A stretch of DNA of 64,000 bases from Octopus vulgaris. Its lineage: Eukaryota. The notes beneath the pieces were generated by a model. That model saw nothing but the letters and a program-made list of their open reading frames with translations, made no database searches and was not told where the DNA came from. Shown in pieces: positions 4,605 to 49,849 of the stretch; the stretch's first letter is position 1; every line of letters starts with the position of its first letter. Position numbers and translations under genes: made by a program. Location: NCBI GenBank assembly GCA_951406725.2, contig OX597843.1, positions 5,084,001-5,148,000 on the forward strand, in the 5' to 3' direction.

Positions 4605-4695
4605 TTTTAGTACAATTGTTTCATACAAAGACAGGCTTTATTACAAGTTGCAAAAATTGCAGCAGATAAAAGTGTCCTGTACTCATCAGCTAAAA
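4605..4695 (-). ncRNA. Type I hammerhead ribozyme 2
   Basis: Minus strand reads UUUUAG-CUGAUGA-GUAC...GUAU-GAAAC-AAUU-GUA-CUAAAA. Confidence 0.85.
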
Positions 4696-8376: not shown

Positions 8377-8879
8377 CACCTAAGTTAAATCGAGACTATT
8401 TAAACACACTGCTTCTTGGTGTGACATCATTTCCCCTTGCGTCTGGTTCCCTCAATCCACATTACCTGCTTCATTTCTTCATGTGACACCACCCCAGGTC
8501 TAAAGATCACTGCTCCTCTCTTCTTGGGTGGCCAATGTTCCCTTTGTTATCTTTGTAGGGTCACAGGGCTGGTCTCTCCCTCAACTTTTTCATCAGTGGA
8601 GCTAACCACCCTCCAAACACAAGATATGTGAACTGGCATGCATTATGGGGCTTCACCCATTCTTGCCCTACTATCTGAACAGATTTAACCCCTTCTAAAT
8701 CTGACTGCTGTGGGGTCAAACATGGATGTCTCCATTTATACTGGAATGCTTCAGAGGGCAGATTCATCCCCACTAAGTCATGGTTTGGGCTGCGCGATGG
8801 TGTCATTCCACAATTCTATTTCTACTGGGTCTGTATGCAGCTCTTAAGAAATCTCCACCGGAATCTAACATCGTCTTAC

Positions 8880-8965
8880 CAGTCAACTGAAGACAAGTTG
8901 ATGGCTTCATTATCATGAATAATGCATACTTTTGTAATAGAATCTGCATCACATCATCACCAATT
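8880..8965 (-). pseudogene. TERT: Isolated TERT-like exon (telomerase TEN domain, GQ-motif region)
   Basis: Encodes IGDDVMQILLQKYALFMIMKPSTCLQLTG, compared with human TERT [29 protein letters not shown] (recalled from memory). Preceded by a pyrimidine tract with AT in place of AG and followed by GTAAGA. Confidence 0.75.
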
Positions 8966-9114
8966 ATGCAGAAGATAAAACAAAAAAATACTTCCCTAGC
9001 CACACCTTCTGCACTGGACAGCCCAGCAAAGAAAAGAACTGTTCAAACACTCTGCTTCTTAATGTGACACCATTTCCCCTTCCTTTTGGTCCCCTCATTT
9101 TATTTAATTTTATT

Positions 9115-9610
9115 TAATTCTACTCTTATCCAATCACAGCATATGTAAAGCTGTATAACCATTTGCATGTCTCTAGCTGACATCTCTCCTCCTTCTTCTA
9201 TCAATATCTCGATTAGTTCTATGTTACCTTGCTAACAAGATGTCACCATGAGAGTTTGGCCATTTGAACTTATTTGTTTGATTTTATCAGACGGTAATTT
9301 GTTTTTTCATTCGTCGGTTACAAATTCGCCTATCAAGATATGTTGTACTTTGAGTATGTTCTCAAAGATTCTTAAAGAAGATGCCACTGTATGAAATTTG
9401 TTATAGAATTTGGTAGCTAGAATTTCCATCTTAGACGATTCTTTCTTTGGTATCATTCCACAATTCTATTTCTACTGGGTCTGTGTGCAGCTCTTAAAGA
9501 AATCTCCACCGGCATCTAACATCGTCTTTATTAGTTCTATGTTACCTTGCTAACAAGAGGTCACCATGAGAGTTTGACCATTTGAAGTTGTTTCGTTGAT
9601 TTCATTAGGA
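9115..9610 (-). pseudogene. Decayed ankyrin-repeat fragments (two related pieces)
   Basis: INETTSNGQTLMVTSC*QGNIELIKTMLDAGGD and SNGQTLMVTSC*QGNIELIEILIEEGG...NGYTALHML. Confidence 0.6.
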
Positions 9611-10142
9611 TGTAATTTGATTTTTCATTCTTTTGATGAAATCTGACTAAGCTCCTGGTCAGAAAGGAATACTTCCCTAGCCACACCTTCTGCACTGGAC
9701 AGCCCAGCAAAGAGACTGTTTAAACACACTGCTTCTTCGTGTGACATCATTTCCCCTTGCATCTGGTTCCCTCAATCCACATTACCTGCTTCATTTCTTC
9801 ATGTGACACCACCCCAGGTCTAAAGATCACTGCTCCTCTCTTCTTGGGTGGCCAATGTTCCCTTTGTTATCTTCGCAGGGTCACAGGGCTGGTCTCTCCC
9901 TCAGCTTTTTCATCAGTGGAGCTAACCACCCTCCAAACACACGATATGTGAACTGGCATGCATTACGGGGCTTCACCCAATCTTGCCCTCTTATCTGACC
10001 AGATTTAACCCCTTCTACATCTGACTGCTGTGGGGTCAAACATGGATGTCTCCATTTATACTGGAATGCTTCAGAGGGCAGATTCATCCCTACTAAGTCA
10101 TGGCTTTGGTTGTGCGATGGTGTCATTCCACAATTCTATTAT

Positions 10143-10910
10143 ATTTTATAAGAGTGATTTCTCTCTGGCATTGCACACGATGGGGAACCTTCTCTTTTGC
10201 GCACTGGTCCCATTATGAATATACTTGTTAAGATTTGGCTTTATATATTTTCAATGGTGTTGGTGAAAACTATTATATAGGCACTCCATAAATATGTTAG
10301 ATGTATGAGGTCACGTAATCTTATTTTACAGTTTTCCAGGTACGATTTCTTCCTAATAGAAACTTTCTCACCTTTGTGTGTCGGGCATCGAAATATTTTT
10401 TCTTTGTTGTATTTTATAAGAGTGATTTCTCTCTGGCATTGCACACGATGGGGAACCTTCTCTTTGCGTAATCTTATTTTACAGTTTTCCAGGTACGATT
10501 TCTTCCTAATAGAAACTTTCTCACCTTTGTGCGTTGGGCACCGAAATATTTTTTCTTTGTTGTATTTTATAAGAGTGATTTCTCTCTGGCATTGCACACG
10601 ATGGGGAACCTTCTCTTTTGCGTAATCTTATTTTACAGTTTTCCAGGTACGATTTCTTCCTAATAGAAACTTTCTCACCTTTGTGCGTTGGGCACCGAAA
10701 TATTTTTTCTTTGTTGTATTTTATAAGAGTGATTTCTCTCTGGCATTGCACACGATGGGGAACCTTCTCTTTTGCGTAATCTTATTTTACAGTTTTCAAG
10801 GTACGATTTCTTCCTAATAGAAACTTTCTCACCTTTGTGTGTCGGGCATCGAAATATCTTTTCTTTATGTTTTACCAGTCATTTCTCTCTGGCATTGCAC
10901 ACGATGGGGA
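10143..10910. repeat. 153-154-bp tandem repeat, ~4 copies plus a detached partial copy
   Basis: attttataagagtgatttctctctggc recurs at ~10144, 10411, 10564 and 10718. Confidence 0.93.
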
Positions 10911-11049
10911 GAAACCTCATTCAGAACTTTCTCTTCCTTTAGGAAGGAATATGTCCCATCGAAGTCTTGGACGATACTATACAAATCACACAACATATTA
11001 TTTAATAATAATATTTTTTGAACAAAGTAAATAATTTTTTTGTTTTGTC

Positions 11050-11332
11050 ATGTCGTCCGCATAGGCAGAAACAGACTTATGGGGACACCAGTTGAATTTC
11101 ATTGCCACTTTTCTTCATGGTTGGGCCGTTGTGGCTTTCCTTGCATTTCCGTGTATTGTTGCTTGATCAGTCGTGCATCCTGTGGTGTGGGTAACACTGC
11201 TAGCTTTGTTCTTTTTTCCTGCGGCTCTTCTTTCGCAATCCCTTTTAAGGTGTGCTTCACTGCCGCATATATAGTAGCGTGGTAATCTTCCCTCGACCAC
11301 TACATACAATTTGTGGTCTTCCGAAAGATGTA
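11050..11332 (-). pseudogene. LINE ORF1/gag-like zinc-knuckle fragment
   Basis: IHLSEDHKLYVVVEGRLPRYYICGSEAHLKRDC (degenerate CX2CX4HX4C). Confidence 0.7.
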
Positions 11333-11823
11333 TTCGTAGGATATTCGCAGCTTGCAATAAAAACCCATGAATTCTTTTGGGAGTAGGGCGAAAAGCCTGC
11401 ATGAATTGATATCTAGCAACATATTGCTTTAAGAAACACGGTTTAATTCCAGGCCTTATCACATTCCTTTTTAAGCTGCCCCAAATTCGTTCTATTGTTT
11501 GTGTATGAATAGATGGGTTTGCTGGGTCTACAAAGTTCTGGCTATGATTTATTTGAAAATGCGTGTAACCTAAACTAGGTGGCCTATATATACAGGCCAA
11601 CAATCGCTATATACAGTTGAACCTTGATGAATGTGGTGTCTGATTAATGGAATCAGTGAGGAAGAATCATGTCTTGGAATTTCACCACATTCTGATGTCA
11701 GGGGTATCAAAAAATCTTTCTTGGAATCCCTTTCCATTCCGCCAAAAAGTCTCCCCCGGTTGTTTTCTTGTAACGAAGACTGTCTCATCTATTTCAACTG
11801 CGATCCCTGGCCCTCCAATTTCT
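11333..11823 (-). pseudogene. Merlin/IS1595(ISXO2)-like DDE transposase fragment
   Basis: IGGPGIAVEIDETVF, LFGGMER, LIPLIRHHI.QGSTVYSDCW, NHSQNFVDP, IHTQTIERIW. Confidence 0.9.
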
Positions 11824-11907
11824 GTGACATCATTTCCCCCTGCCTCTGATATCCTCATTTTATGTAATTCTATTTAATTTTATGTAATTCTAAATTACTT
11901 TCAAAAT

Positions 11908-12990
11908 TCATTTACCTGACATAGGTATAGGTTCCATCTCATAATGAAACAACTCTATCTTCATGGCCAGGTGTAAACAACTGTTGCCTTTGTTGGGAGA
12001 CCCTTTTGACATAAATTGTGGGCCCCCTCCAAGGTGAGCCCTGGACCCAGCATGGATTTTCTTAACACCATAATGAAACAACTCTATTTTCACAGCAAGG
12101 TGTAAACAACTATTGCCTTTGTTGGCAGACCCTTTTGACATAAATTGTGGGCCCCCTCCAAGGTGACCCCTGGACCCAGCATGGATTTTCTTAACACCGT
12201 AATGAAACAACTCTATTTTCGCAGCCAGGTGTAAACAACTGTTGCCTTTGTTGGCAGACCCTTTTGGCATAAATTGTGGGCCCCCTCCAAGGTGACCCCT
12301 GGACCCAGCATAGATTTTCTTAACACCGGAATGAAACAACTCTATCTTCACAGCCAGGTGTAAACAACTGTTGCCTTTGTTGGCAGACCCTTTTGACATA
12401 AATTGTGGGCCCCCTCCAAGGTGACCCCTGGACCCAGCATGGATTTTCTTAACACCGTAATGAAACAACTCTATTTTCACAGCAAGGTGTAAACAACTGT
12501 TGCCTTTGTTGGCAGACCCTTTCGAAATAAATTGTGGGCCCCCTCCAAGGTGACCCCTGGACCCAGCATGGATTTTCTTAACACCGTAATGAAACAACTC
12601 TATTTTCACAGCAAGGTGTAAACAACTGTTGCCTTTGTTGGCAGACCCTTTTGACATAAATTGTGGGCCCCCTCCAAGGTGACCCCTGGACCCAGCATGG
12701 ATTTTCTTAACACCTTAATGTAACAACTCTATCTTCACAGCAAGGTGTAAACAACTGTTGCCTTTGTTGGCAGACCCTTTTGAAATGAATTGTGGGTCCC
12801 CTCCAAGGTGACCCCTAGACCCAGCATGGATTTTCTTAACACCATAATGAAACAACTCTATTTTCACAGCAAGGTGTAAACAACTGTTGCCTTTGTTGGC
12901 AGGCCCTTTTGAAATAAATTGTGGGCCTTCTCCAAGGTGACCCCTGGACCCAGCATGGATTTTCTTAACACCATAATGGCACAAATCAAT
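11908..12990. repeat. 129-bp tandem array A, ~8 copies
   Basis: gccccctccaaggtg recurs at 12022, 12151 and onward with a 129-bp period, giving 43-aa periodic ORFs. Confidence 0.95.
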
Positions 12991-12999
12991 CTACATCGC

Positions 13000-13432
13000 A
13001 AGCCTGCATGAATTGATATCTAGCAACATATTACTTTAAGGAACACGGTTTAATTCCAGCCCTTATCACATTCCTTTTTAAGCTGCCCTAAAATCGTTCT
13101 ATTGTTTGTGTATGAATAGATGGGTTTTCTGGGTCTAGGAAGTTCTGGCTATGATTTATCTGAAAATGCGTGTAACCTAAACTAGGTAGCCTATTATATA
13201 CAGGCCAACAATCTCTATATACGGTTGAACCTTGATGAATGTGGCGTCTGATTAATGGAATCAGTGTGGAAGAATCATGTCTTTGAATTTCACCACATTC
13301 CGATGTCAGGGGTATCAATAAATCTTTCTTGGAATCCCTTTCCATTCCGCCAAAAAGTCTCCCCCCGATTGTTTTCTTGAAACGAAGACTGTCTCATCTA
13401 TTTCAACTGCGATCCCTGGCCCTCCAATTTCT
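13000..13432 (-). pseudogene. Merlin/IS1595-like transposase fragment (second copy)
   Basis: Same motifs as 11333-11823 (EIDET, NHSQNFLDP, HTQTIE). Confidence 0.9.
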
Positions 13433-16400
13433 GTGACATCATTTCCCCTCCCCTCTGATCTCCTCATTTTATTTAATTCTACTCTCATCCCATCACAGCA
13501 TCTGTAAAGGTTTTTGAACCTTTGTGCATCGCTCAAGTTGATGGTTTGATTATCATGAACAATGCATACTTTTCTAATAGAATCTGCATCACATCATCAC
13601 CAATGATGTAGAAGATGTAAAGGCAACCTGCCCAAGCTCCTGGTCAGAAAGGAATACTTCCCTAGCCACACCTTCTGCACTGGACAGCCCAGCCAAGAGA
13701 CTGTTTAAACACACTGCTCCTTGATGTGACATCGTCTCCCCTTGCCTCTGATCTCCTCATTTTATTTAATTCTACTCTCATCCCATCACAGCATCTGTAA
13801 AGGTTTTTGAACATTTGTGCATCGCTCAAGTTGATGGTTTGATTATCATGAACAATGCATACTTTTCTAATAGAATCTGCATCACATCATCACCAATGAT
13901 GTAGAAGATGTAAAGGCAACCTGCCCAAGCTCCTGGTCAGAAAGGAATACTTCCCTAGCCACACCTTCTGCACTGGACAGCCCAGCCAAGAGACTGTTTA
14001 AACACACTGCTCCTTGATGTGACATCATCTCCCCTCCCCTCTGAACTCCTCATTTTATTTAATTCTACTCTCATCCCATCACAGCATCTGTAAAGGTTTT
14101 TGAACATTTGTGCATCGCTCAAGTTGATGGTTTGATTATCATGAACAATGCATACTTTTCTAATAGAATCTGCATCACATCATCACCAATGATGTAGAAG
14201 ATGTAAAGGCAACCTGCCCAAGCTCCTGGTCAGAAAGGAATACTTCCCTAGCCACACCTTCTGCACTGGACAGCCCAGCCAAGAGACTGTTTAAACACAC
14301 TGCTCCTTGATGTGACATCATCTCCCCTCCCCTCTGAACTCCTCATTTTATTTAATTCTACTCTCATCCCATCACAGCATCTGTAAAGGTTTTTGAACAT
14401 TTGTGCATGGCTCAAGTTGATGGTTTGATTATCATGAACAATGCATACTTTTCTAATAGAATCTGCATCACATCATCACCAATGATGTAGAAGATGTAAA
14501 GGCAACCTGCCTAAGCTCCTGGTCAGAAAGGAATACTTCCCTAGCCACACCTTCTGCACTGGACAGCCCAGCCAAGAGACTGTTTAAACACACTGCTCCT
14601 TGATGTGACATCATCTCCCCTCCCTCTGAACTCCTCATTTTATTTAATTCTACTCTCATCCCATCACAGCATCTGTAAAGGTTTTTGAACATTTGTGCAT
14701 GGCTCAAGTTGATGGTTTGATTATCATGAACAATGCATACTTTTCTAATAGAATCTGCATCACATCATCACCAATGATGTAGAAGATGTAAAGGCAACCT
14801 GCCCAAGCTCCTGCTCAGAAAGGAATACTTCCCTAGCCACACCTTCTGCACTGGACAGCCCAGCCAAGAGACTGTTTAAACACACTGCTCCTTGATGTGA
14901 CATCATCTCCCCTCCCCTCTGAACTCCTCATTTTATTTAATTCTACTCTCATCCCATCACAGCATCTGTAAAGGTTTTTGAACATTTGTGCATGGCTCAA
15001 GTTGATGGTTTGATTATCATGAACAATGCATACTTTTCTAATAGAATCTGCATCACATCATCACCAATGATGTAGAAGATGTAAAGGCAACCTGGCCAAG
15101 CTCCTGGTCAGAAAGGAATACTTCCCTAGCCACACCTTCTGCACTGGACAGCCCAGCCAAGAGACTGTTTAAACACACTGCTCCTTGATGTGACATCATC
15201 TCCCCTCCCCTCTGAACTCCTCATTTTATTTAATTCTACTCTCATCCCATCACAGCATCTGTAAAGGTTTTTGAACATTTGTGCATGGCTCAAGTTGATG
15301 GTTTGATTATCATGAACAATGCATACTTTTCTAATAGAATCTGCATCACATCATCACCAATGATGTAGAAGATGTAAAGTCAACCTGCCCAAGCTCCTGG
15401 TCAGAAAGGAATACTTCCCTAGCCACACCTTCTGCACTGGACAGCCCAGCCAAGAGACTGTTTAAACACACTGCTCCTTGATGTGACATCATCTCCCCTC
15501 CCCTCTGAACTCCTCATTTTATTTAATTCTACTCTCATCCCATCACAGCATCTGTAAAGGTTTTTGAACATTTGTGCATGGCTCAAGTTGATGGTTTGAT
15601 TATCATGAACAATGCATACTTTTCTAATAGAATCTGCATCACATCATCACCAATGATGTAGAAGATGTAAAGGCAACCTGGCCAAGCTCCTGGTCAGAAA
15701 GGAATACTTCCCTAGCCACACCTTCTGCACTGGACAGCCCAGCCAAGAGACTGTTTAAACACACTGCTCCTTGATGTGACATCATCTCCCCTCCCCTCTG
15801 ATCTCCTCATTTTATTTAATTCTACTCTCATCCCATCACAGCATCTGTAAAGGTTTTTGAACATTTGTGCATCGCTCAAGTTGATGGTTTGATTATCATG
15901 AACAATGCATACTTTTCTAATAGAATCTGCATCACATCATCACCAATGATGTAGAAGATGTAAAGGCAACCTGCCCCAGCTCCTGGTCAGAAAGGAATAC
16001 TTCCCTAGCCACACCTTCTGCACTGGACAGCCCAGCCAAGAGACTGTTTAAACACTCTGCTCCTTGATGTGACATCATCTCCCCTCCCCTCTGATCTCCT
16101 CATTTTATTTAATTCTACTCTCATCCCATCACAGCATCTGTAAAGGTTTTTGAACATTTGTGCATGGCTCAAGTTGATGGTTTGATTATCATGAACAATG
16201 CATACTTTTCTAATAGAATCTGCATCACATCATCACCAATGATGTAGAAGATGTAAAGGCAACCTGCCCAAGCTCCTGGTCAGAAAGGAATACTTCCCTA
16301 GCCACACCTTCTGCACTGGACAGCCCAGCCAAGAGACTGTTTAAACACACTGCTCCTTGATGTGACATCGTCTCCCCTCCCCTCTGATCTCCTCATTTTA

Positions 16401-19400
16401 TTTAATTCTACTCTCATCCCATCACAGCATCTGTAAAGGTTTTTGAACATTTGTGCATCGCTCAAGTTGATGGTTTGATTATCATGAACAATGCATACTT
16501 TTCTAATAGAATCTGCATCACATCATCACCAATGATGTAGAAGATGTAAAGGCAACCTGCCCAAGCTCCTGGTCAGAAAGGAATACTTCCCTAGCCACAC
16601 CTTCTGCACTGGACAGCCCAGCCAAGAGACTGTTTAAACACACTGCTACTTGATGTGACATCATCTCCCCTTGCCTCTGATCTCCTCATTTTATTTAATT
16701 CTACTCTCATCCCATCACAGCATCTGTAAAGGTTTTTGAACATTTGTGCATCGCTCAAGTTGATGGTTTGATTATCATGAACAATGCATACTTTTCTAAT
16801 AGAATCTGCATCACATCATCACCAATGATGTAGAAGATGTAAAGGCAACCTGCCCAAGCTCCTGGTCAGAAAGGAATACTTCCCTAGCCACACCTTCTGC
16901 ACTGGACAGCCCAGCCAAGAGACTGTTTAAACACACTGCTCCTTGATGTGACATCGTCTCCCCTCCCCTCTGATCTCCTCATTTTATTTAATTCTACTCT
17001 CATCCCATCACAGCATCTGTAAAGGTTTTTGAACATTTGTGCATCGCTCAAGTTGATGGTTTGATTATCATGAACAATGCATACTTTTCTAATAGAATCT
17101 GCATCACATCATCACCAATGATGTAGAAGATGTAAAGGCAACCTGCCCAAGCTCCTGGTCAGAAAGGAATACTTCCCTAGCCACACCTTCTGCACTGGAC
17201 AGCCCAGCCAAGAGACTGTTTAAACACACTGCTACTTGATGTGACATCATCTCCCCTTGCCTCTGATCTCCTCATTTTATTTAATTCTACTCTCATCCCA
17301 TCACAGCATCTGTAAAGGTTTTTGAACATTTGTGCATCGCTCAAGTTGATGGTTTGATTATCATGAACAATGCATACTTTTCTAATAGAATCTGCATCAC
17401 ATCATCACCAATGATGTAGAAGATGTAAAGGCAACCTGGCCAAGCTCCTGGTCAGAAAGGAATACTTCCCTAGCCACACCTTCTGCACTGGACAGCCCAG
17501 CCAAGAGACTGTTTAAACACACTGCTCCTTGATGTGACATCATTTCCCCTCCCCTCTGATCTCCTCATTTTATTTAATTCTACTCTCATCCCATCACAGC
17601 ATCTGTAAAGGTTTTTGAACATTTGTGCATCGCTCAAGTTGATGGTTTGATTATCATGAACAATGCATACTTTTCTAATAGAATCTGCATCACATCATCA
17701 CCAATGATGTAGAAGATGTAAAGGCAACCTGGCCAAGCTCCTGGTCAGAAAGGAATACTTCCCTAGCCACACCTTCTGCACTGGACAGCCCAGCCAAGAG
17801 ACTGTTTAAACACACTGCTCCTTGATGTGACATCATCTCCCCTTGCCTCTGATCTCCTCATTTTATTTAATTCTACTCTCATCCCATCACAGCATCTGTA
17901 AAGGTTTTTGAACATTTGTGCATCGCTCAAGTTGATGGTTTGATTATCATGAACAATGCATACTTTTCTAATAGAATCTGCATCACATCATCACCAATGA
18001 TGTAGAAGATGTAAAGGCAACCTGCCCAAGCTCCTGGTCAGAAAGGAATACTTCCCTAGCCACACCTTCTGCACTGGACAGCCCAGCCAAGAGACTGTTT
18101 AAACACACTGCTACTTGATGTGACATCATCTCCCCTTGCCTCTGATCTCCTCATTTTATTTAATTCTACTCTCATCCCATCACAGCATCTGTAAAGGTTT
18201 TTGAACATTTGTGCATCGCTCAAGTTGATGGTTTGATTATCATGAACAATGCATACTTTTCTAATAGAATCTGCATCACATCATCACCAATGATGTAGAA
18301 GATGTAAAGGCAACCTGGCCCAAGCTCCTGGTCAGAAAGGAATACTTCCCTAGCCACACCTTCTGCACTGGACAGCCCAGCCAAGAGACTGTTTAAACAC
18401 ACTGCTACTTGATGTGACATCATCTCCCCTTGCCTCTGATCTCCTCATTTTATTTAATTCTACTCTCATCCCATCACAGCATCTGTAAAGGTTTTTGAAC
18501 ATTTGTGCATCGCTCAAGTTGATGGTTTGATTATCATGAACAATGCATACTTTTCTAATAGAATCTGCATCACATCATCACCAATGATGTAGAAGATGTA
18601 AAGGCAACCTGCCCAAGCTCCTGGCCAGAAAGGAATACTTCCCTAGCCACACCTTCTGCACTGGACAGCCCAGCCAAGAGACTGTTTAAACACACTGCTC
18701 CTTGATGTGACATCATTTCCCCTCCCCTCTGATCTCCTCATTTTATTTAATTCTACTCTCATCCCATCACAGCATCTGTAAAGGTTTTTGAACATTTGTG
18801 CATCGCTCAAGTTGATGGTTTGATTATCATGAACAATGCATACTTTTCTAATAGAATCTGCATCACATCATCACCAATGATGTAGAAGATGTAAAGGCAA
18901 CCTGCCCAAGCTCCTGGTCAGAAAGGAATACTTCCCTAGCCACACCTTCTGCACTGGACAGCCCAGCCAAGAGACTGTTTAAACACACTGCTCCTTGATG
19001 TGACATCATTTCCCCTCCCCTCTGATCTCCTCATTTTATTTAATTCTACTCTCATCCCATCACAGCATCTGTAAAGGTTTTTGAACATTTGTGCATCGCT
19101 CAAGTTGATGGTTTGATTATCATGAACAATGCATACTTTTCTAATAGAATCTGCATCACATCATCACCAATGATGTAGAAGATGTAAAGGCAACCTGCCC
19201 AAGCTCCTGGTCAGAAAGGAATACTTCCCTAGCCACACCTTCTGCACTGGACAGCCCAGCCAAGAGACTGTTTAAACACACTGCTCCTTCATGTGACATC
19301 ATCTCCCCTCCCCTCTGATCTCCTCATTTTATTTAATTCTACTCTCATCCCATCACAGCATCTGTAAATATTTTTGAACATTTGTGCATCGCTCAAGTTG

Positions 19401-22400
19401 ATGGTTTGATTATCATGAACAATGCATACTTTTCTAATAGAATCTGCATCACATCATCACCATTGATGTAGAAGATGTAAAGGCAACCTGGCCAAGCTCC
19501 TGGTCAGAAAGGAATACTTCCCTAGCCACACCTTCTGCACTGGACAGCCCAGCCAAGAGACTGTTTAAACACACTGCTCCTTGATGTGACATCATCTCCC
19601 ATCACCTCTGATCTCCTCATTTTATTTAATTCTACTCTCATCCCATCACAGCATCTGTAAAGGTTTTTGAACCTTTGTGCATCGCTGAAGTTGATGGTTT
19701 GATTATCATGAACAATGCATACTTTTCTAATAGAATCTGCATCACATCATCACCAATGATGTAGAAGATGTAAAGGCAACCTGCCCAAGCTCCTGGTCAG
19801 AAAGGAATACTTCCCTAGCCACACCTTCTGCACTGGACAGCCCAGCCAAGAGACTGTTTAAACACACTGCTACTTGATGTGACATCATTTCCCCTCCCCT
19901 CTGATCTCCTCATTTTATTTAATTCTACTCTCATCCCATCACAGCATCTATAAAGGTTTTTGAACATTTGTGCATCGCTCAAGTTGATGGTTTGATTATC
20001 ATGAACAATGCATACTTTTCTAATAGAATCTGCATCACATCATCACCAATGATGTAGAAGATGTAAAGGCAACCTGCCCAAGCTCCTGGTCAGAAAGGAA
20101 TACTTCCCTAGCCACACCTTCTGCACTGGACAGCCCAGCCAAGGGACTGTTTAAACACACTGCTACTTGATGTGACATCATCTCCCCTCCCCTCTGATCT
20201 CCTCATTTTATTTAATTCTACTCTCATCCCATCACAGCATCTGTAAAGGTTTTTGAACCTTTGTGCATCGCTCAAGTTGATGGTTTGATTATCATGAACA
20301 ATGCATACTTTTCTAATAGAATCTGCATCACATCATCACCAATGATGTAGAAGATGTAAAGGCAACCTGGCCAAGCTCCTGGTCAGAAAGGAATACTTCC
20401 CTAGCCACACCTTCTGCACTGGACAGCCCAGCCAAGAGACTGTTTAAACACACTGCTACTTGATGTGACATCATTTCCCCTCCCCTCTGATCTCCTCATT
20501 TTATTTAATTCTACTCTCATCCCATCACAGCATCTATAAAGGTTTTTGAACATTTGTGCATCGCTCAAGTTGATGGTTTGATTATCATGAACAATGCATA
20601 CTTTTCTAATAGAATCTGCATCACATCATCACCAATGATGTAGAAGATGTAAAGGCAACCTGGCCAAGCTCCTGGTCAGAAAGGAATACTTCCCTAGCCA
20701 CACCTTCTGCACTGGACAGCCCAGCCAAGAGACTGTTTAAACACACTGCTCCTTGATGTGACATCATTTCCCCATCACCTCTGATCTCCTCATTTTATTT
20801 AATTCTACTCTCATCCCATCACAGCATCTATAAAGGTTTTTGAACATTTGTGCATCGCTCAAGTTGATGGTTTGATTATCATGAACAATGCATACTTTTC
20901 TAATAGAATCTGCATCACATCATCACCAATGATGTAGAAGATGTAAAGGCAACCTGCCCAAGCTCCTGGTCAGAAAGGAATACTTCCCCAGCCACACCTT
21001 CTGCACTGGACAGCCCAGCCAAGGGACTGTTTAAACACACTGCTACTTGATGTGACATCATCTCCCCTCCCCTCTGATCTCCTCATTTTATTTAATTCTA
21101 CTCTCATCCCATCACAGCATCTATAAAGGTTTTTGAACATTTGTGCATCGCTCAAGTTGATGGTTTGATTATCATGAACAATGCATACTTTTCTAATAGA
21201 ATCTGCATCACATCATCACCAATGATGTAGAAGATGTAAAGGCAACCTGCCCAAGCTCCTGGTCAGAAAGGAATACTTCCCTAGCCACACCTTCTGCACT
21301 GGACAGCCCAGCCAAGAGACTGTTTAAACACACTGCTCCTTGATGTGACATCATCTCCCCTCCCCTCTGAACTCCTCATTTTATTTAATTCTACTCTCAT
21401 CCCATCACAGCATCTGTAAAGGTTTTTGAACATTTGTGCATCGCTCAAGTTGATGGTTTGATTATCATGAACAATGCATACTTTTCTAATAGAATCTGCA
21501 TCACATCATCACCAATGATGTAGAAGATGTAAAGGCAACCTGGCCAAGCTCCTGGTCAGAAAGGAATACTTCCCTAGCCACACCTTCTGCACTGGACAGC
21601 CCAGCCAAGGGACTGTTTAAACACACTGCTACTTGATGTGACATCATCTCCCCTCCCCTCTGATCTCCTCATTTTATTTAATTCTACTCTCATCCCATCA
21701 CAGCATCTGTAAAGGTTTTTGAACATTTGTGCATCGCTCAAGTTGATGGTTTGATTATCATGAACAATGCATACTTTTCTAATAGAATCTGCATCACATC
21801 ATCACCAATGATGTAGAAGATGTAAAGGCAACCTGCCCAAGCTCCTGGTCAGAAAGGAATACTTCCCTAGCCACACCTTCTGCACTGGACAGCCCAGCCA
21901 AGAGACTGTTTAAACACACTGCTCCTTGATGTGACATCATCTCCCCATCCCTCTGATCTCCTCATTTTATTTAATTCTACTCTCATCCCATCACAGCATC
22001 TGTAAAGGTTTTTGAACATTTGTGCATCGCTCAAGTTGATGGTTTGATTATCATGAACAATGCATACTTTTCTAATAGAATCTGCATCACATCATCACCA
22101 ATGATGTAGAAGATGTAAAGGCAACCTGCCCAAGCTCCTGGTCAGAAAGGAATACTTCCCTAGCCACACCTTCTGCACTGGACAGCCCAGCCAAGAGACT
22201 GTTTAAACACACTGCTACTTGATGTGACATCATCTCCCCTCCCCTCTGATCTCCTCATTTTATTTAATTCTACTCTCATCCCATCACAGCATCTGTAAAG
22301 GTTTTTGAACATTTGTGCATCGCTCAAGTTGATGGTTTGATTATCATGAACAATGCATACTTTTCTAATAGAATCTGCATCACATCATCACCAATGATGT

Positions 22401-25400
22401 AGAAGATGTAAAGGCAACCTGCCCAAGCTCCTGGTCAGAAAGGAATACTTCCCTAGCCACACCTTCTGCACTGGACAGCCCAGCCAAGAGACTGTTTAAA
22501 CACACTGCTCCTTGATGTGACATCATTTCCCCTCCCCTCTGAACTCCTTTTATTTAATTCTACTCTCATCCCATCACAGCATCTGTAAAGGTTTTTGAAC
22601 CTTTGTGCATCGCTCAAGTTGATGGTTTGATTATCATGAACAATGCATACTTTTCTAATAGAATCTGCATCACATCATCACCAATGATGTAGAAGATGTA
22701 AAGGCAACCTGCCCAAGCTCCTGGTCAGAAAGGAATACTTCCCTAGCCACACCTTCTGCACTGGACAGCCCAGCCAAGAGACTGTTTAAACACACTGCTA
22801 CTTGATGTGACATCATCTCCCCTCCCCTCTGATCTCCTCATTTTATTTAATTCTACTCTCATCCCATCACAGCATCTGTAAAGGTTTTTGAACATTTGTG
22901 CATCGCTCAAGTTGATGGTTTGATTATCATGAACAATGCATACTTTTCTAATAGAATCTGCATCACATCATCACCAATGATGTAGAAGATGTAAAGGCAA
23001 CCTGCCCAAGCTCCTGGTCAGAAAGGAATACTTCCCTAGCCACACCTTCTGCACTGGACAGCCCAGCCAAGAGACTGTTTAAACACACTGCTACTTGATG
23101 TGACATCATCTCCCCTCCCTCTGATCTCCTCATTTTATTTAATTCTACTCTCATCCCATCACAGCATCTGTAAAGGTTTTTGAACATTTGTGCATCGCTC
23201 AAGTTGATGGTTTGATTATCATGAACAATGCATACTTTTCTAATAGAATCTGCATCACATCATCACCAATGATGTAGAAGATGTAAAGGCAACCTGCCCA
23301 AGCTCCTGGTCAGAAAGGAATACTTCCCTAGCCACACCTTCTGCACTGGACAGCCCAGCCAAGAGACTGTTTAAACACACTGCTCCTTGATGTGACATCA
23401 TTTCCCCTCCCCTCTGATCTCCTCATTTTATTTAATTCTACTCTCATCCCATCACAGCATCTGTAAAGGTTTTTGAACATTTGTGCATCGCTCAAGTTGA
23501 TGGTTTGATTATCATGAACAATGCATACTTTTCTAATAGAATCTGCATCACATCATCACCAATGATGTAGAAGATGTAAAGGCAACCTGCCCCAAGCTCC
23601 TGGTCAGAAAGGAATACTTCCCTAGCCACACCTTCTGCACTGGACAGCCCAGCCAAGAGACTGTTTAAACACACTGCTCCTTGATGTGACATCATCTCCC
23701 CTCCCCTCTGATCTCCTCATTTTATTTAATTCTACTCTCATCCCATCACAGCATCTGTAAAGGTTTTTGAACATTTGTGCATCGCTCAAGTTGATGGTTT
23801 GATTATCATGAACAATGCATACTTTTCTAATAGAATCTGCATCACATCATCACCAATGATGTAGAAGATGTAAAGGCAACCTGCCCAAGCTCCTGGTCAG
23901 AAAGGAATACTTCCCTAGCCACACCTTCTGCACTGGACAGCCCAGCCAAGAGACTGTTTAAACACACTGCTCCTTGATGTGACATCATCTCCCCTCCCCT
24001 CTGATCTCCTCATTTTATTTAATTCTACTCTCATCCCATCACAGCATCTGTAAAGGTTTTTGAACATTTGTGCATCGCTCAAGTTGATGGTTTGATTATC
24101 ATGAACAATGCATACTTTTCTAATAGAATCTGCATCACATCATCACCAATGATGTAGAAGATGTAAAGGCAACCTGCCCAAGCTCCTGGTCAGAAAGGAA
24201 TACTTCCCTAGCCACACCTTCTGCACTGGACAGCCCAGCCAAGAGACTGTTTAAACACACTGCTCCTTGATGTGACATCATTTCCCCATCACCTCTGATC
24301 TCCTCATTTTATTTAATTCTACTCTCATCCCATCACAGCATCTGTAAAGGTTTTTGAACATTTGTGCATCGCTCAAGTTGATGGTTTGATTATCATGAAC
24401 AATGCATACTTTTCTAATAGAATCTGCATCACATCATCACCAATGATGTAGAAGATGTAAAGGCAACCTGCCCAAGCTCCTGGTCAGAAAGGAATACTTC
24501 CCTAGCCACACCTTCTGCACTGGACAGCCCAGCCAAGAGACTGTTTAAACACACTGCTCCTTGATGTGACATCATTTCCCCTCCCTACTCCTCTGATCTC
24601 CTCATTTTATTTAATTCTACTCTCATCCCATCACAGCATCTGTAAAGGTTTTTGAACATTTGTGCATCGCTCAAGTTGATGGTTTGATTATCATGAACAA
24701 TGCATACTTTTCTAATAGAATCTGCATCACATCATCACCAATGATGTAGAAGATGTAAAGGCAACCTGCCCAAGCTCCTGGTCAGAAAGGAATACTTCCC
24801 CAGCCACACCTTCTGCACTGGACAGCCCAGCCAAGAGACTGTTTAAACACACTGCTCCTTGATGTGACATCATCTCCCCTCCCCTCTGATCTCCTCATTT
24901 TATTTAATTCTACTCTCATCCCATCACAGCATCTGTAAAGGTTTTTGAACATTTGTGCATCGCTCAAGTTGATGGTTTGATTATCATGAACAATGCATAC
25001 TTTTCTAATAGAATCTGCATCACATCATCACCAATGATGTAGAAGATGTAAAGGCAACCTGCCCAAGCTCCTGGTCAGAAAGGAATACTTCCCTAGCCAC
25101 ACCTTCTGCACTGGACAGCCCAGCCAAGAGACTGTTTAAACACACTGCTCCTTGTGTATGAATAGATGGGTTTTTGAACATTTGTGCATCGCTCAAGTTG
25201 ATGGTTTGATTATCATGAACAATGCAACAATGCATACTTTGATGTAGAAGATGTGTAAAGGCAACCTAATAGAATCTGCATCACATCATCACCAATGATG
25301 TAGAAGATGTAAAGGCAACCTGCCCAAGCTCCTGGTCAGAAAGGAATACTTCCCTAGCCACACCTTCTGCACTGGACAGCCCAGCCAAGAGACTGTTTAA

Positions 25401-25436
25401 ACACACTGCTGAAAGAAGTGCCCTTGATGTGACATC
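13432..25436. repeat. 293-bp satellite array, ~40 near-identical copies; the monomer contains TERT-like and ankyrin-derived segments
   Basis: aatgcatacttttc at 13561, 13854, 14147 and onward (period 293). The minus strand encodes IGDDVMQILLEKYALFMIIKPST in each copy. The right end is scrambled. Confidence 0.98.
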
Positions 25437-25556
25437 GGCAAAAGAGACCTGATAGAATAAGTACTGGGCTTACAAAACAATAAATCCCGAAGCCGAGCTG
25501 CTCGATCTAAAGGCAGTGCTCTGGCCACAGTCAAATAACCAAGTGAAAGAGTAAAG
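25437..25556 (+). mobile_element. SINE 3' fragment capping the satellite
   Basis: cggcaaaagagacc.gatagaataagtactgggcttac matches the SINE tail at ~60450-60575. Confidence 0.7.
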
Positions 25557-25844
25557 CGTATTGTTCCCATTTGCTAAGTGTTTCTAGTTTCTGTTAAGCT
25601 GCTGCTCTGGATTGGAGATTCGGTGTATTGCGGTAAATGTTGCTCCAGTGATTTTGATCTTTCATCTTTTGGTGTTGATTTGCATCTCCCGTATCTGCTA
25701 TTCCACTTTTTCATAATCTTTTTAATAAAGTTATTTGTGTCATACTCTTTACAAGTTCCCCCGATTATATTCTCTCCTGACCAAGACTGTCTCATCTATT
25801 TCAACTTGTTGTTATACTCTTCCATGGATCTTTCCCCTTTCCTC

Positions 25845-26530
25845 TGTTTAATTCCAGGCCTTATCACATTCCTTTTTAAGCTGCCCCAAATCGTGTCAAT
25901 ATGTTGTGTATGAATAGATGGGTTTGCTGGGTCTACAAAGTTCTGGCTATGATTTATTTGAAAATGCATGTAACCTAAACTAGGTGGCCTATTATATACA
26001 GGCCAACAATCGCTATATACAGTTGAACCTTGATGAATGTGGCGTCTGATTAATGGAATTAGTGTGGAAGAATCACATCTTTGAATTTCACCACATTCCG
26101 ATGTCAGGGGTATCAAAAAATCTTTCTTGGAATCCCTTTCTATTCCGCCAAAAAGTCTCATCCGATTGTTTTCTCGTAACGAAGACTGTCTCATCTATTT
26201 CAACTGCGATCCCTAGCCCTCCAATTTCTGCTTGGGAATTTTCGACACAAGGAAGGCAAACTTCAGAACAGAAAGATCTCCCATCAACTGACGTAGCAAG
26301 CGATGTGTCTAAATATTCTATAACAGCTTGATGCGACCAACCTTCTGTTAGGAAATGATTTATGTACAAAAGAACTTTCCATGAGGGTAACCGACTCTCC
26401 TCCAAAAAGGTGTTCTTAAAGATGGAAACTGATAAACCACATTCTGTCTCCTACGACGAACCATCTTCCTACAAAGAAATATATTTGTTCCATTTCGCAG
26501 AACACACGGTGAATTGCATGTTGGGATTCC
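25845..26530 (-). pseudogene. Merlin/IS1595-like transposase, longest piece (part of the N-terminus through the DDE core)
   Basis: SRLPSWKVLLYINHFL...EIGGLGIAVEIDETVF...LFGGIER...SDCW...NHSQNFVDP. Confidence 0.9.
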
Positions 26531-27029
26531 GTCTCATTATGAAACAAAAATCTCTTGAAATATTTTGGAGAGGTTTTTGAAAATTTTTCCAGAGATACTT
26601 CTGGAACCCCCCGACCGCATTTAGAAAGAGGGTTTTGAGTGTGTGTGACATGTACTATTTTTTTGTGTGTCGGTGGTGTAGTGTTTGGATGGTTGATCAG
26701 TTTAATGTCATCTTCACAGATGTTTGTGTGAGATGCGATGTAATTCATTAGTTTTGTAATTAGGTACATAGCTGTCAGAATATGTTTTTTTGTGGTATCG
26801 TTGCTGGTTTGATTGTGTAAGGGGATTTCAGGGTTTACATATCTCCCTGCTTTCGTTGCATTTGCCTTTTTTCTTTTACTCCCGGTGGCTATTTGCCATT
26901 CTGTTGTGCTTTCATCGTTGGACGATAAGTCTGACGAATGAGAAGGGGGGTAAGGCCAAGGCATGTGGGTCCGTTTATATTGCTGTGGTGTGTGTGGGTG
27001 TTTGTTGTTGGGGGATCGGGTGTAGTAAT

Positions 27030-27780
27030 TGTCCCTTGACCACTACATACAATTTGTGGTCTTCAGAAAGATGTATATGGGTGGGTATTTTATTTATGGA
27101 GTCTTGATTAATGTGGAGAAGAATCTCCAGTCTCTTTCCCAGCCAGATTTTCTGTTCTGAAACAACAATTCGTAGGATATTCGCAGCTTGCAATAAAAAC
27201 CCATGAATTCTTTTGGGAGTAGGGCGAAAAGCCTGCATGAATTGATATCTAGCAACATATTGCTTTAAGAAACACGGTTTAATTCCAGGCCTTATCACAT
27301 TCCTTTTTAAGCTGCCCCGAAATCGTTCTATTGTTTGTGTATGAATAGATGGGTTTGCTGGGTCTACGATGTTCTGGCTATGATTTATCTGAAAATGCGT
27401 GTAACCTAAACTAGGTGGCCTATTATATACAGGCCAACAATCGCTATATACAGTTTAACCTTGATGAATGTGGCGTCTGATTAATGGAATCAGTGTGGAA
27501 GAATCATGTCTTGGAATTTCACGACAAAGGGTAACAATACAAGCTTTGTTCATTTTTCCTGCGGCTCTTCTTTTGCAATCCCTTTTAAGATGTGCTTCAC
27601 TGCCACATATATAGCAGTGTGGTCCTCTTCCCTCGACCACTACATACAATTTGTGGTCTTCCGAAAGATGTATATGGGTGGGTATTTTATTTATGCAGTC
27701 TTGATTAATGTGGATAAGAATCTCGTCTCTTTCCCAGCCAGTTTTTCTGTTCTGAAACTGCAATTTGTAGGATATTTACA
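27030..27780 (-). pseudogene. Interleaved LINE ORF1 zinc-knuckle pieces (27030-27165, 27530-27780) and Merlin C-terminal piece (27168-27522)
   Basis: Chimeric ORFs 26975..27298 and 27455..27763 (GRGPHCYICGSEAHLKRDC fused to EIPRHDSSTLIPLIRRHI). Confidence 0.8.
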
Positions 27781-28054
27781 TTTTGCAAGTGTTGGCAGAA
27801 TCTTTTGTAATAAATTTTGGGCCCCCTGCAGGGTGACCCGTGGAACCAGCATGGATTTTCTTAACACTATAATGAAACAGATCTATTACTTCCAAAATTC
27901 ATTTACCTAACATAGGTATGGGTTCCATCTCATAATGAAACAACTCTATCTTCACAGCCAGGTGTAAACAACTGTTGCCTTTTTTGGCAGACTCTATTGA
28001 GACAAAATGTGGGCCCCCTTGAAGGTAACCCCTGGACCCAGCATGGAGTTTCTC

Positions 28055-28350
28055 CCAGCAATTTGTAGGATATTTACATCCTCCATTTCAAAACATATGG
28101 CCGATGCTACCCATTGTGTGTATGCTAGTTGCGGAACATTCTTGATTATGACTTTTGTTACTCTCTGACCAAGGTTACTGGGTATCATTATTAGGTCGTC
28201 TGAATGAAGATTTTTAGCGTTGACAATTGTTTTGCTAAATCTTCATTTTTAAATACTACTTGTACATGTGCAAACTTGCTCCACCAAGTCACATATTCTT
28301 TACATCCACAGATAAGGTGAAGGCATTTTTCAATTTTGTCAGCAATACAC
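28055..28350 (-). pseudogene. LINE (L1/Tx1-like) ORF1 RRM-like fragment
   Basis: VVFKNEDLAKQL...LIMIPSNLGQRVTKVIIKNVPQLAYTQWVASAICFEM; upstream part of the same protein as the zinc-knuckle pieces. Confidence 0.55.
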
Positions 28351-28385
28351 CAGAAAATACAAAACTAATAAATTACTTTCAAAAT

Positions 28386-29340
28386 TCATTTACCTGACAT
28401 AGGTATGGGTTCCATCTCATAATGAAACAACTCTATCTTCGCAGCCAGGTGTAAACAACTGTTGCCTTTGTTGGCAGACCCTTTTGAAATAAATTGTGGG
28501 CCCCCTCCAAGGTGACCCCTGGACCCAGCATGGATTTTCTTAACACCGGAATGAAACAACTCTATCTTCACAGCAAGGTGTAAACAACTGTTGCCTTTGT
28601 TGGCAGACCCTTTTGAAATAAATTGTGGGCCCCCTCCAAGGTGACCCCTGGACCCAGCATGGATTTTCTTAACACCGGAATGAAACAACTCTATCTTCAC
28701 AGCCAGGTGTAAACAACTGTTGCCTTTGTTGGCAGACCCTTTTGAAATAAATTGTGGGCCCCCTCCAAGGTGACCCCTGGACCCAGCATGGATTTTCTTA
28801 ACACCGGAATGAAACAACTCTATTTTCACAGCCAGGTGTAAACAACTGTTGCCTTTGTTGGCAGACCCTTTTGAAATAAATTGTGGGCCTCCTCCAAGGT
28901 GACCCCTGGACCCAGCATGGATTTTCTTAACACCGGAATGAAACAACTCTATCTTCAGAGCAAGGTGTAAACAACTGTTGCCTTTGTTGGCAGACCCTTT
29001 TGAAATAAATTATGGGACCCCTCCAAGGTGACCCCTGGACCCAGCATGGATTTTCTTAACACCGGAATGAAACAACTCTATCTTCACGGCAAGGTGTAAA
29101 CAACTGTTGCCTTTGTTGGCAGACCCTTTTGAAATAAATTGTGGGCCCCCTCCAAGGTGACCCCTGGACCCAGCATGGATTTTCTTAACACCAGAATGAA
29201 ACAACTCTATTTTCATAAGAAGGTGGAAAGAACTTTTGCAAGTATTGGCAGACCCTTTTGAAATAAAATTGTGGGTCTTCTCCAAGGTGACCCTTACCCA
29301 GCATGGATTTTCTTAACACCATAACAACGCAAATCAACCT
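28386..29340. repeat. 129-bp tandem array B, ~7 copies
   Basis: Same unit and same left flank (aattactttcaaaattcatttacctgacatagg) as array A. Confidence 0.95.
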
Positions 29341-29399
29341 TCATCGCAAGCCTGCATAAATTGATATCTAGCAACATATTGCTTTAAGAAACATGGTTT

Positions 29400-29856
29400 C
29401 AACTGCAATCCCTAGCCCTCCAATTTCTGCTTGGGAATTTTCGACCCAATGAAGGCAAACTTCAGAACAGAAAGATCTCCCATCAACTGACGTAGCAAGC
29501 GATGTGTCTAAATATTCTATAACAGCTTGATGCGACCAACCTTCTGTTAGGAAATGATTTATATATAAAAGAACTTTCTATGAGGGTAACCGACTCCGCT
29601 CCAAAAGGGTGTTCTTAAAGATGGAAACTGAAAAACCACATTCTGTTGCCCTTTGTCTCCTACGACGAACCATCTTCCTACAACGAAATATATTTTTTCC
29701 ATTTCGCAGAACACACGGTGAATTGCATGTTGGGCAATTCACATTTCTTGGGATTACCCCATGTTCGCGAAAAAATTCTGATGCCGAGTCATCTTTATAT
29801 TGAAATCTAGAAACCCCTTCATATAACGTTAATTCATACGCAATGCACGCTGTCAT
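29400..29856 (-). pseudogene. Merlin transposase N-terminus with zinc ribbon
   Basis: MTACIAY...EFFREHGVIPRNVNCPTC...IFRCRK...ECGFSVSIFKNT.LERSRL. Confidence 0.85.
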
Positions 29857-32800
29857 GACGCAGGTCTAAGTGATCGAAGCCGTGCATCCTGTGGTGTGGG
29901 TAACAATGCAAGCTTTGTTCTTTTTCGCTGCGTCTCTTTTGCGGCAGATTTGCAACCCCTTTTGAGGTGTGCTTCACTGCCGCATATGTAGCAGCGTGGT
30001 CCTCTGCCCTCGACGACCACATACAACTTGTGGTCCTCTGATATATATATCCGAGTGGGTATTTTCTTGATGTCCTCTTGGTTTATATGTAGTAAAAATT
30101 CTACTTTTTTTCCCACCCAGTTTTTGTGCTCCGTGACCGTAGTTTCTAAAACTGTGAAATCTTCCATTTTCACACACAAGGCCTTTACTAGCCATAGATT
30201 GTTGGCGTGGAGAGGGTAGTTGAACTGTCGACTAACCTCCGACGTCTGACATCTACCAATAAATCAAAGTTATTTAGAAAATCCGCACCTAAAATAGGAT
30301 GCGGAATGTCAGCAATGACAAAAACCCACTGAAAATCTCGACGAAGATTTATGTCAAGGCGTAACGAGATCTGACCGAATGTGGCTATTGGTGACGAGTC
30401 AATAGCGTGCAAGGTAACGTTAGATCGTTTTGGCTTGTCGGTTGTGAGACGCAGAGGCCAAATGCTGCAGCAAGAACCAGTGTCCACCATGAAGTATTTC
30501 TTCGACACTAGATCCTTAACGAAAAATGCACGATAACTAGAAAATGATGTGGAGGAGGTTGACGTGCAAATGATGTGGAGGTGGTTGAACGGCAAATTCA
30601 ACCATTTTATCTGCCATAGTTGCTATCTGGTCCACGGAATTGGACTCTAAAGCGGTTGCCAAAACAGTTTGTATCTATGCGGGCAACCTTCTATAACAGC
30701 TTGAAGCGACCAACTTTCTGTTAGGAAATGATTTATGTATAAAAGAACGTTCCATGAGGGTAACCGACTCTGCTCCACAAAGGTATTCTTAAAGATGGAA
30801 ACTGAAAAACCACATTCTGTTGCCCTTTGTCTCCTACGACGAACCATCTTCCTACAACAAAATATATTTGTTCCATTTCGCAGAACACACGGTGAATTGC
30901 ATGTTGGGATTCCGTCTCATTATGAAACAAAAATCTCTTGAAACATTTTGGAGAGGTTTTAGAAAATTTTTTCCAGAGATACTTTTAGAACCCCCCGACC
31001 GCATTTGGAAAGAGGGTTTTAAGTGTGTGGTGGTGCTGCGTTTGTGTGACGTTTCTTCCAGCAATTTGTAGGATATTTACATCCTCCATTTCAAAACATA
31101 TGGCCGATGCTACCCATTGTGTGTTGGGCAATTCACATTTCTTGGGATTACCCCTGGACTCAGCATGGAGTTTCTCAACAAAGATTTTCTAGCAATTGAA
31201 AATGTTGGTCAATCTTCTTGTGTTGTATCCTTTGAAACATATTTCCATTCTCCCTGAATTCCCATTTCGCAGAACACCCGGTGAATTGCATGTTGGGCAA
31301 TTCACATTTCTTGGGATTACCCCATGTTCGCGAAAAAATTCTAATGCTGAGTCATCTTTATATTGAAATCTAGAAACCCCTTCATATAACGTTAATTCAT
31401 ACGCAATGCACGCTGTCATGACGCAGGTCTAAGTGATCGAAGCCGTGCATCCTGTGGTGTGGGTAACAATGCAAGCTTTGTTCTTTTTCTCTGCGACTCT
31501 TTTGCGGCAGATTTGCAATCCCTTTTATGGTGTGCTTCACTGCCGCATATGTAGCAGCGTGGTCCTCTGCTCTCGACGACCACGTACAACTTGTGGTCCT
31601 CTGATATACATATATATCCAGGTGGGTATTTTCTTTATGTCCTCTTGGTTTATATGTAGTAGAAATTCTACTTTTTTTCCCACCCAGTTTTTGTGCTCTG
31701 TGACCGTAGTTTCTAAAACTGTGAAATCTTCCATTTTCACACATAGGGCCTTTACTAGCCATAGATTGTTGGCGTGGAGAGGGTAGTTGAACTGTCGACT
31801 AACCTCCGATGTCTGACATCTACCAATAAATCAAAGTTATTTAGAAAATCCGCACCTAAAATAGGATGCGGAATGTCAGCAATGACAAAAACCCACTGAA
31901 AGTCTCGACGAAGATTTATGTCAAGGCGTAACGAGATCTGACCGAATGTGGCTATTGGTGACGAGTCAATAGCGTGCAAGGTAACGTTAGATCGTTTTGG
32001 CTTGTCGGTTGTGAGACGCAGAGGCCAAATGCTGCAGCAAGAACCAGTGTCCACCATGAAGTATTTCTTCGACACTAGATCCTTAACGAAAAATGCACGA
32101 TAACTAGAAAATGATGTGGAGGAGGTTGACGTGCTCAACTCCTCCGAAGCTTCTTTAAATCTTTATAGGTGCATGGCGGTATGCACCTATGTGCTTTCTC
32201 TCCAAATTTGGAGTGATACCAACACAGTCCGGACTTTGACTGTGTGGTACGTGATGATGAACGGCTGCGACTCCGCGATCTTGAAAATCGCTTGCCATCG
32301 CGTCCATTCTTTTGGTGAGGGTTTCTATTTGTTTAGAAAATCCCTCAATTGAGGCTGAAGAAGTTTGTGAGGAGACACAAGCAGACCGTGACGGTTGTTG
32401 CACGGCAAATTCAACCATTTTATCTACCATAGTTGCTATCTGGTCCACGGTATTGGACTCTAAAGCGGTTGCCAAAACAGTTTGTATATATGCGGGCAAC
32501 CTTCTATAACAGCTTGATGCGACCAACCTTCTGTTAGGAAATGATTTATGTATAAAAGAACTTTCCATGAGGGTAACCGACTCTGCTCCAGAAAGGTGTT
32601 CTTAAAGATGGAAACTGAAAAACCACATTCTGTCTCCTACGACGAGCCATCTTCCTACAAAGAAATATATTTGTTCCATTTCGCAGAACACACGGTGAAT
32701 TGCATGTTGGGATTCCGTCTCATTATGAAACAAAAATCTCTTGAAATACTTTGGAGAGGTTTTAGAAAATTTTTTCCAGAGATACTTCTGGAACCCCCCG

Positions 32801-49845: not shown

Positions 49846-49849
49846 TGAT

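Follow-up and report, generated by a model that had tools for sequence, protein, structure and literature searches.

A 64,000-nucleotide stretch of the Octopus vulgaris genome (referred to as the window; C30:5084001-5148000) was found to contain 40 tandem copies of a 293-bp satellite, each of which includes part of an exon of the telomerase gene, TERT. Searches of the assembled genome (2.8 Gb in 227 contigs) showed how the repeat was built: part of the TERT locus reached C30 as a copy that retained introns, recombined with pieces of an LTR element and of an ankyrin gene, and was amplified. Judging from the strand-biased patchwork of transposon, viral and host-gene pieces in which the array is embedded, the domain is on balance likely to be a uni-strand piRNA cluster in which a module directed against TERT has been amplified. 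Actual regulation of telomerase by the array, with a fall in TERT, would be a further step that we consider doubtful.

The satellite and its telomerase exon

As originally noted, the array consists of about 40 monomers: TRF reported a period of 293 bp and 40.0 copies with 98% matches at positions 13432-25154 of the window. An alignment of the 39 complete monomers showed that variants are shared patchily among copies. The monomer contig reached a depth of 943 in a public run of DNA size, as against 39-85 for the seven low-copy contigs listed. Independent data therefore agree that the array is multi-copy and not an assembly artefact. The depth ratio of ~16-25, depth itself being no copy number, is below 40, and copy-number variation or split contigs may be the cause. 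The array, its parts and the related TERT copies on C30 are as follows.

13432..25154, no strand: 40 x 293-bp satellite with a chimeric monomer (TRF and alignment)
13534..13616, minus: TERT piece of monomer 1, 92.8% identical to C27:8354911-8354993
13466..13509, minus: monomer part resembling an ankyrin-gene exon end and donor site, 82% identical to the locus B copy
13630..13760, minus: LTR-element part, across the monomer junction, 66-81% identical to a copy at C3:47.26 Mb
25155..25436, no strand: 41st monomer, rearranged, with a broken TERT piece (sequence comparison)
25435-25555: SINE-like tail after the 41st monomer
8875..8990, minus: single TERT copy, whole exon plus GT donor, fused to integrase sequence, 87% identical to the parent
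C30:5,353,600-5,358,400: locus B, a 5-kb patchwork with four intron-bearing TERT copies plus ankyrin and LTR pieces, the latter two in both orientations

The TERT piece was detected by BLAST in 40/40 monomers. It is 83 nt long and is composed of 13-14 nt of intron end and ~70 nt of the GQ exon, with the acceptor AG changed to AT; 39 copies are 92.7-92.8% identical to the exon on C27 and one is 91.6% identical. The minus-strand peptide IGDDVMQILLEKYALFMIIKPST, which had been ascribed to each monomer, is exact in 39 of the 40, the other having a first-codon substitution. Similarly, the single copy noted at 8880-8965 does extend to CLQLTG, but it reads ILLQKYALFMIMK, two residues off the monomer.

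The proposed identity of this sequence, the TEN domain (GQ motif) of TERT, proved correct. Human TERT accounted for all PDB matches of the single copy at E<10 (3/3 chains, residues 143-173), but these are weak by themselves (E 0.5), and the identity was settled by the genome, where the best match is an exon of the TERT gene, 92.8% identical to the monomer and 87% to the single copy. With the single copy as a query, the genome DNA search gave one match to the TERT part outside C30, at C27:8354892-8355009. This parent exon (C27:8354897-8354982), on another chromosome, is 86 nt long, bounded by AG/GT and in phase with the next exon. Downstream of it on the same strand lie the TRBD, RT motifs 1/2, A, B'/C and E, and C-terminal exons; the TRBD, RT and C-terminal exons are matched by four mollusc TERTs, and the closest named relatives of the gene are from bivalves. 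TERT had been expected to be single-copy, and indeed the RT B'/C exon has one match in the genome and only one TERT gene was detected. A protein-database search with the 42-aa TERT piece gave no match, and a genome search with Pfam Telomerase_RBD, which also gave none, was uninformative because its control matched nowhere either. Just upstream of TERT, C27:8,370,865-8,374,998 holds an open frame that spans 1378 aa or more and gave no Pfam match; the clear plus-strand fragment in the window domain comes from a relative of it.

Besides the array, C30 carries six further TERT copies. Two of them, in the window and at 3.36 Mb, are each 87% identical to the parent, and the other four, at 5.355 Mb, are 82-85% identical. 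All TERT copies are fused to LTR-element sequence, and no other TERT exons were found in the 361 kb of C30 examined. The four locus B copies keep flanking intron, two of them on both sides, to an extent of ~90 bp downstream and >300 bp upstream. A processed retrocopy of TERT mRNA was therefore rejected, as the monomer keeps the intron end and related copies keep flanking intron; the template must have been DNA or unspliced RNA. Locus B may be left over from the original capture, or may be a weak source of hairpins.

Over 70 nt, the satellite is the copy closest to the parent, with 6 differences as compared with 7, 8 and 14-16 for the other C30 copies, in which the longest perfect runs are 26, 15, 15, 16, 11 and 9 nt. 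Five exon states, three of them residue-changing, are common to all C30 copies spanning those sites and differ in the gene, and one of the copy states (the L in LLE) is that of bivalve TERT. This hints that the TERT gene may have changed from the L in LLE state after its exon was captured, in a comparison made without a cephalopod outgroup: the 12 proteins matched by the RT exon in a protein search included TERTs of bivalves and plants and none from cephalopods, so the differences between parent and copies are not polarisable.

On the minus strand, the order within the monomer is LTR-element piece, TERT piece, and ~45 nt resembling an ankyrin exon end. A piece related to the latter, at 9107-9220, is 78-82% identical to dispersed ankyrin exons. 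The LTR-element part comes from just downstream of the integrase and presumably represents the polypurine tract and LTR start. A genome search placed the monomer on C30 only, with no dispersed copies. For the 231 bp outside the TERT piece, 13/13 matches were on C30 and none elsewhere (11/12 candidates scored), and TERT is therefore, within the limits of that search, the best-matched target of the monomer. On the other hand, because the monomer is a three-part chimera, its amplification need not concern TERT at all. The earlier interpretation was right about TERT, its single-copy parent and an identity adequate for slicing, and it missed this chimeric structure.

A same-strand patchwork around the array

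The array lies in a domain of ~44 kb made of short, locally duplicated pieces of transposons, virus and host genes. It is poor in microsatellites: only 9 of 77 four-kb bins in 311 kb were microsatellite-free, and all of them are inside the domain or at its right edge. Pfam identified Merlin/IS1595, Helitron, mariner, LINE ORF1 and LTR gag pieces. In all, five transposon classes are mixed with parvovirus-like NS1 and host-gene pieces in local tandem repeats. The main features are listed here.

8300..52000, no strand: strand-biased, microsatellite-poor patchwork, putative cluster; edges approximate
2153..4606, minus: reverse-transcriptase element, upstream of the core domain
8392..8874, minus, duplicated at 9712-10140: LTR integrase C-terminal piece; dispersed relatives 66-85% identical
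11118..13393, minus, also 25799-26194 and 26978-27454: Merlin/IS1595 transposase fragments (Pfam)
11940..12978, minus: ankyrin exon piece repeated 8 times in a 129-bp array, 73-75% identical to dispersed ankyrin genes
28421-29320 (x7) and 37148-37631 (x3.8): further 129-bp ankyrin arrays
27458..30263, minus: LINE ORF1-like zinc-knuckle fragments
30191..36491, minus: ~1.8-kb unit in 3 tandem copies, LTR gag-like (DUF7041) and, by eye, protease-like
37843..38523, minus: Helitron Rep fragment (E 3e-32)
38575..45180, minus: repeated RING-exon pieces of the ankyrin-RING family, 83-94% identical to family members
38935-39795: 111-bp x7.7 array within the RING-exon pieces
46583..46957, plus: fragment from an unnamed family of long single-ORF genes, 72.7% identical to a gene at C27:8.37 Mb
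46919..47416, minus: parvovirus-like NS1 fragment, a broken endogenous viral element
48610..48891, minus: mariner transposase HTH fragment
49635-49778, plus: RTE-like piece
50115-50441: Helitron-type STPR fragment
C30:3,344,000-3,382,000, minus: sister patchwork (domain A), same-strand

The integrase at 8392-8874 was named from weak PDB hits and weak Atlas hits (<0.9, leads only), and the motifs present are those we take to be typical of integrases; an ankyrin identity for this piece was rejected, the sequence being integrase-like. The reverse-transcriptase element at 2153..4606 is presumably Penelope-like, based on its GIY-YIG and RT motifs. Pfam named none of the integrase, Penelope-like, LINE-end and CRESS-like ORFs. 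Other pieces were recognized by eye: the minus frame of a 154-bp x3.9 array at 10314-10910 resembles a Merlin transposase N-terminus (no informative Pfam match), and minus frames at 45826-46191, beside NS1, resemble a parvoviral capsid end (no Pfam match). A 25-bp x15 minisatellite lies at 6828-7205, near the left edge of the domain.

Upstream of the window, at C30:5,078,474-5,079,108 and 5,082,400-5,083,700, we observed an array of 127 bp x5 together with ankyrin pieces on the minus strand, which suggests that the domain reaches further left than the window. The flanks also contain a plus-strand TPR gene upstream (C30:5,072,060-5,075,000), cyclophilin-40-like by eye, and downstream, at 57999-58322, a minus-strand exon that looks, by eye, like a fatty-acid-binding protein; a lipocalin/FABP exon scores as well.

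The ankyrin-RING family, which we assume to be Mind-bomb-like, is the main host-gene content of both this domain and its sister. It is dispersed, recently expanded and intron-bearing, with loci at C31:7.43, 10.09, 11.08 and 11.65 Mb, C6:135.4-135.5 Mb, C4:0.13 Mb, C9:0.08 Mb, C28, C29 and C1:216.9 Mb. On C1, a 3.6-kb ankyrin-bearing unit is repeated in tandem. In the sister domain, >100 ankyrin-derived units of 140/187 bp and an ankyrin array of 100 bp x43 are accompanied by LTR integrase, LINE RT and a single copy of the TERT piece; 7/8 of its four-kb bins lack microsatellites. At its end are minus-strand pieces that look, by eye, like the Rep of CRESS-DNA viruses; they gave no Pfam match.

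Nearly all the fragments share the strand of the TERT piece, minus. Using 28 proteins from outside the domain as tblastn queries, 19/20 merged segments in the domain and 17/17 in the sister domain were on the minus strand, though segments are not independent of one another. In ~270 kb of flanks, a small control of 7 segments, 4 were minus and 3 plus, and two of the four were the ankyrin pieces just upstream of the window. Counted as independent sources, 11/13 were on the minus strand (two-sided binomial p ~0.02 by hand arithmetic), a count that includes the upstream Penelope-like element and three sources named by eye; the plus-strand exceptions are the gene-family piece at 46583-46957 and the RTE-like piece at 49635-49778. 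A Pfam scan of 150 of the 179 ORFs selected (the 150 being 81 minus and 69 plus) gave 20 ORFs with a hit, 19 of them minus, with ~6 hits looking spurious. As a control for orientation, the 61 ORFs scanned in the flanks are not strong, since few of them had transposon hits. The fragments are biased to one strand, as in uni-strand clusters. Shared orientation does not tell which strand is transcribed, but this context raises the odds of an antisense reading.

Targeting capacity, transcription and alternative explanations

PIWI slicing requires at least 15 contiguous pairs according to PMC10338343. The expectation that identity would be adequate for targeting was borne out at the sequence level: a 28-nt perfect run to the TERT exon (13842-13869 in monomer 2) is kept in all 39 complete monomers aligned, and the exon allows 24 U-starting 28-mers, of which 17 reach 15 or more contiguous pairs and 14 show two mismatches or fewer. 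As in petrel-type clusters, local repeats are >90% identical to a host exon, in this case 40 copies at 91.6-92.8%. Within the monomer, the TERT piece varies least, with 2/26 substitution alleles in 83/293 columns (p 0.011, or 0.018 composition-weighted), which is suggestive of constraint; p is 0.064 without two C-run hot spots, and 18/293 circular windows are equally invariant.

Evidence on transcription was sought in sequencing runs. Three small runs, only guessed to be RNA and with strandless contigs, cover 30, 28 and 22 of 30 bins at 5100-13760; they come from three studies and two organisms and were chosen for holding the stretch, with no silent-stretch control. The monomer contig had depths of 627, 35 and 62 in these runs versus ~9-60, 4-5 and 3-6 for low-copy neighbours. 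Scaling on the SINE bin against the DNA-sized run gave 6-15-fold over genomic background by hand arithmetic, a weak figure as the runs are only guessed to be RNA. Among the 15 joints listed of 154, none was of splice type. Among runs recorded as RNA, none contains the stretch; four same-species runs had almost no matching words, which is not evidence of silence. Within the monomer, the poly(A) signals AATAAA and ATTAAA occur on the minus strand only, and in the rest of the domain AATAAA occurs 43 times on plus versus 20 on minus, a mixed picture in which the plus-strand excess counts against the cluster reading. The genome has PIWI-clade genes at two loci, C9 and C26, and two AGO-clade genes. 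Ping-pong on protein-coding mRNAs is described for molluscan piRNAs in PMC6128900.

The sequence of events we favor begins with capture of the TERT piece, introns included, on C30 and its joining to the LTR-element and ankyrin-gene pieces, followed by 40-fold tandem amplification of the 293-bp chimera within the same-strand patchwork. The domain would be read on the plus strand and the transcript processed into 1U piRNAs against transposons, the parvovirus-like element and the ankyrin-RING family. The array would multiply the dose of anti-TERT guides, and these plus-strand piRNAs would pair with TERT mRNA. A drop in telomerase level would be a further and less likely step. At its most ambitious, such a model would make the array a telomerase-silencing module, a trapped TERT exon selectively amplified 40-fold, near-invariant, and acting as a copy-number-tunable piRNA brake, from which the gene itself might since have diverged at five sites in the exon; this we regard as unlikely.

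The strongest competitor is a neutral passenger, in which the patchwork arose from RNAs by reverse-transcriptase template switching, or by transposon capture, and the TERT piece is inert. LTR elements and Helitrons show sense-biased capture, so pieces could be placed in sense without selection and the 293-bp unit spread by unequal crossing-over; orientation by itself is compatible with such an assembly. The patchy sharing of variants among monomers is expected of unequal exchange, the joining of all TERT copies to LTR-element sequence fits capture, and the conservation test is marginal. Furthermore, unrelated arrays of 129, 154, 111, 140, 187 and 100 bp occur in the same domains, and ankyrin pieces in the sister domain are amplified >100-fold without TERT, indicating that arrays form here anyway. 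However, the domains have no enclosing LTR pair or terminal repeat in common, only internal pieces being shared; DNA transposons, part of a DNA virus and gene pieces with introns are among the cargo; and the satellite retains the best match to the living gene. As to a single Helitron or Pack-type element carrying the whole domain, a comparison of the window with domain A revealed no shared ends. One inverted pair near the edges (5944-6215 / 51699-51949) belongs to a high-copy repeat that recurs elsewhere in the window. Taken together, we find neutrality somewhat improbable.

A role in other small RNAs or a lncRNA, namely endo-siRNAs produced by antisense pairing or hairpins, or read-through from the TPR gene, acting via AGO or duplex formation, appears quite unlikely. 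The end of the plus-strand TPR-domain gene does lie ~9-12 kb upstream of the window, ankyrin and LTR pieces (~70% identity) face both ways in locus B, and the two AGO-clade genes would be available; but a long inverted repeat is absent inside the window domain, and a one-strand layout with transposon and viral pieces fits piRNA sources better. Finally, that the repeats are coding or splicing-competent TERT exons yielding TEN-domain peptides or decoys is close to refuted despite the intact peptide in 39/40 copies, as the piece cannot code, with its acceptor AT rather than AG, no donor and stops flanking the frame, and the 293-bp period moves the reading frame with every copy.

Relation to known piRNA clusters

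The anatomy of the putative piRNA domain is likely that of local-repeat piRNA clusters, a class assignment drawn from sequence anatomy. In Drosophila, petrel and Hsp70B consist of host-gene pieces duplicated locally amid transposon fragments, with >20 copies in petrel and ~354-bp repeats of a nod exon in Hsp70B, and the repeats are antisense and 91-94% identical to their targets, as described in PMC8168559. The window resembles them in its local host-exon repeats, transposon fragments and >90% identity; it differs in its telomerase target, its mollusc host, its three-source chimera and the mere 83 nt of gene included. For petrel and Hsp70B, piRNA output and cleavage have been demonstrated, whereas for the locus in the window they are predicted. 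The same account reports cleavage in one of four host genes with >90% antisense cluster matches, pirate only (PMC8168559).

Su(Ste)/Stellate and AT-chX are also named there as local-repeat clusters (PMC8168559). Like the window, they are tandem repeats of a gene relative, and they are proven antisense piRNA sources; they contain long gene stretches on sex chromosomes, whereas the window has a short exon piece in a mixed patchwork. AT-chX matches vasa. The flamenco cluster collects fragments of many elements in one orientation. Densovirus-derived EVE piRNAs have been described in arthropod clusters (PMC7527727). The one orientation and the parvovirus-like piece of the window recall both these types; unlike in them, the pieces in the window are very short (50-700 bp), have undergone heavy recombination and tandem amplification, and comprise host exons together with introns. 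Satellites that derive from gene fragments captured by transposons, in the form of Helitron/Helentron arrays, are described in oyster and Xenopus (PMC7492417, PMC12001565). The present array is similarly derived from mobile-element plus host-gene sequence, but there are no Helitron ends around it and the monomer is on C30 only.

Our searches of the open-access literature brought up neither a description of this locus nor a case of TERT being controlled by piRNAs in molluscs, although supplements of cephalopod small-RNA studies may list the cluster. If the domain makes piRNAs, it would be a local-repeat cluster that targets genes, telomerase included, in an animal other than a fly; the same searches found no report of such a cluster. 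A copy-number-variable piRNA brake on TERT, if true, would provide a handle on telomerase in a short-lived, senescing group. Whether TERT is a bystander or not, the sister domains show trapping and amplification of host introns and exons by such clusters.
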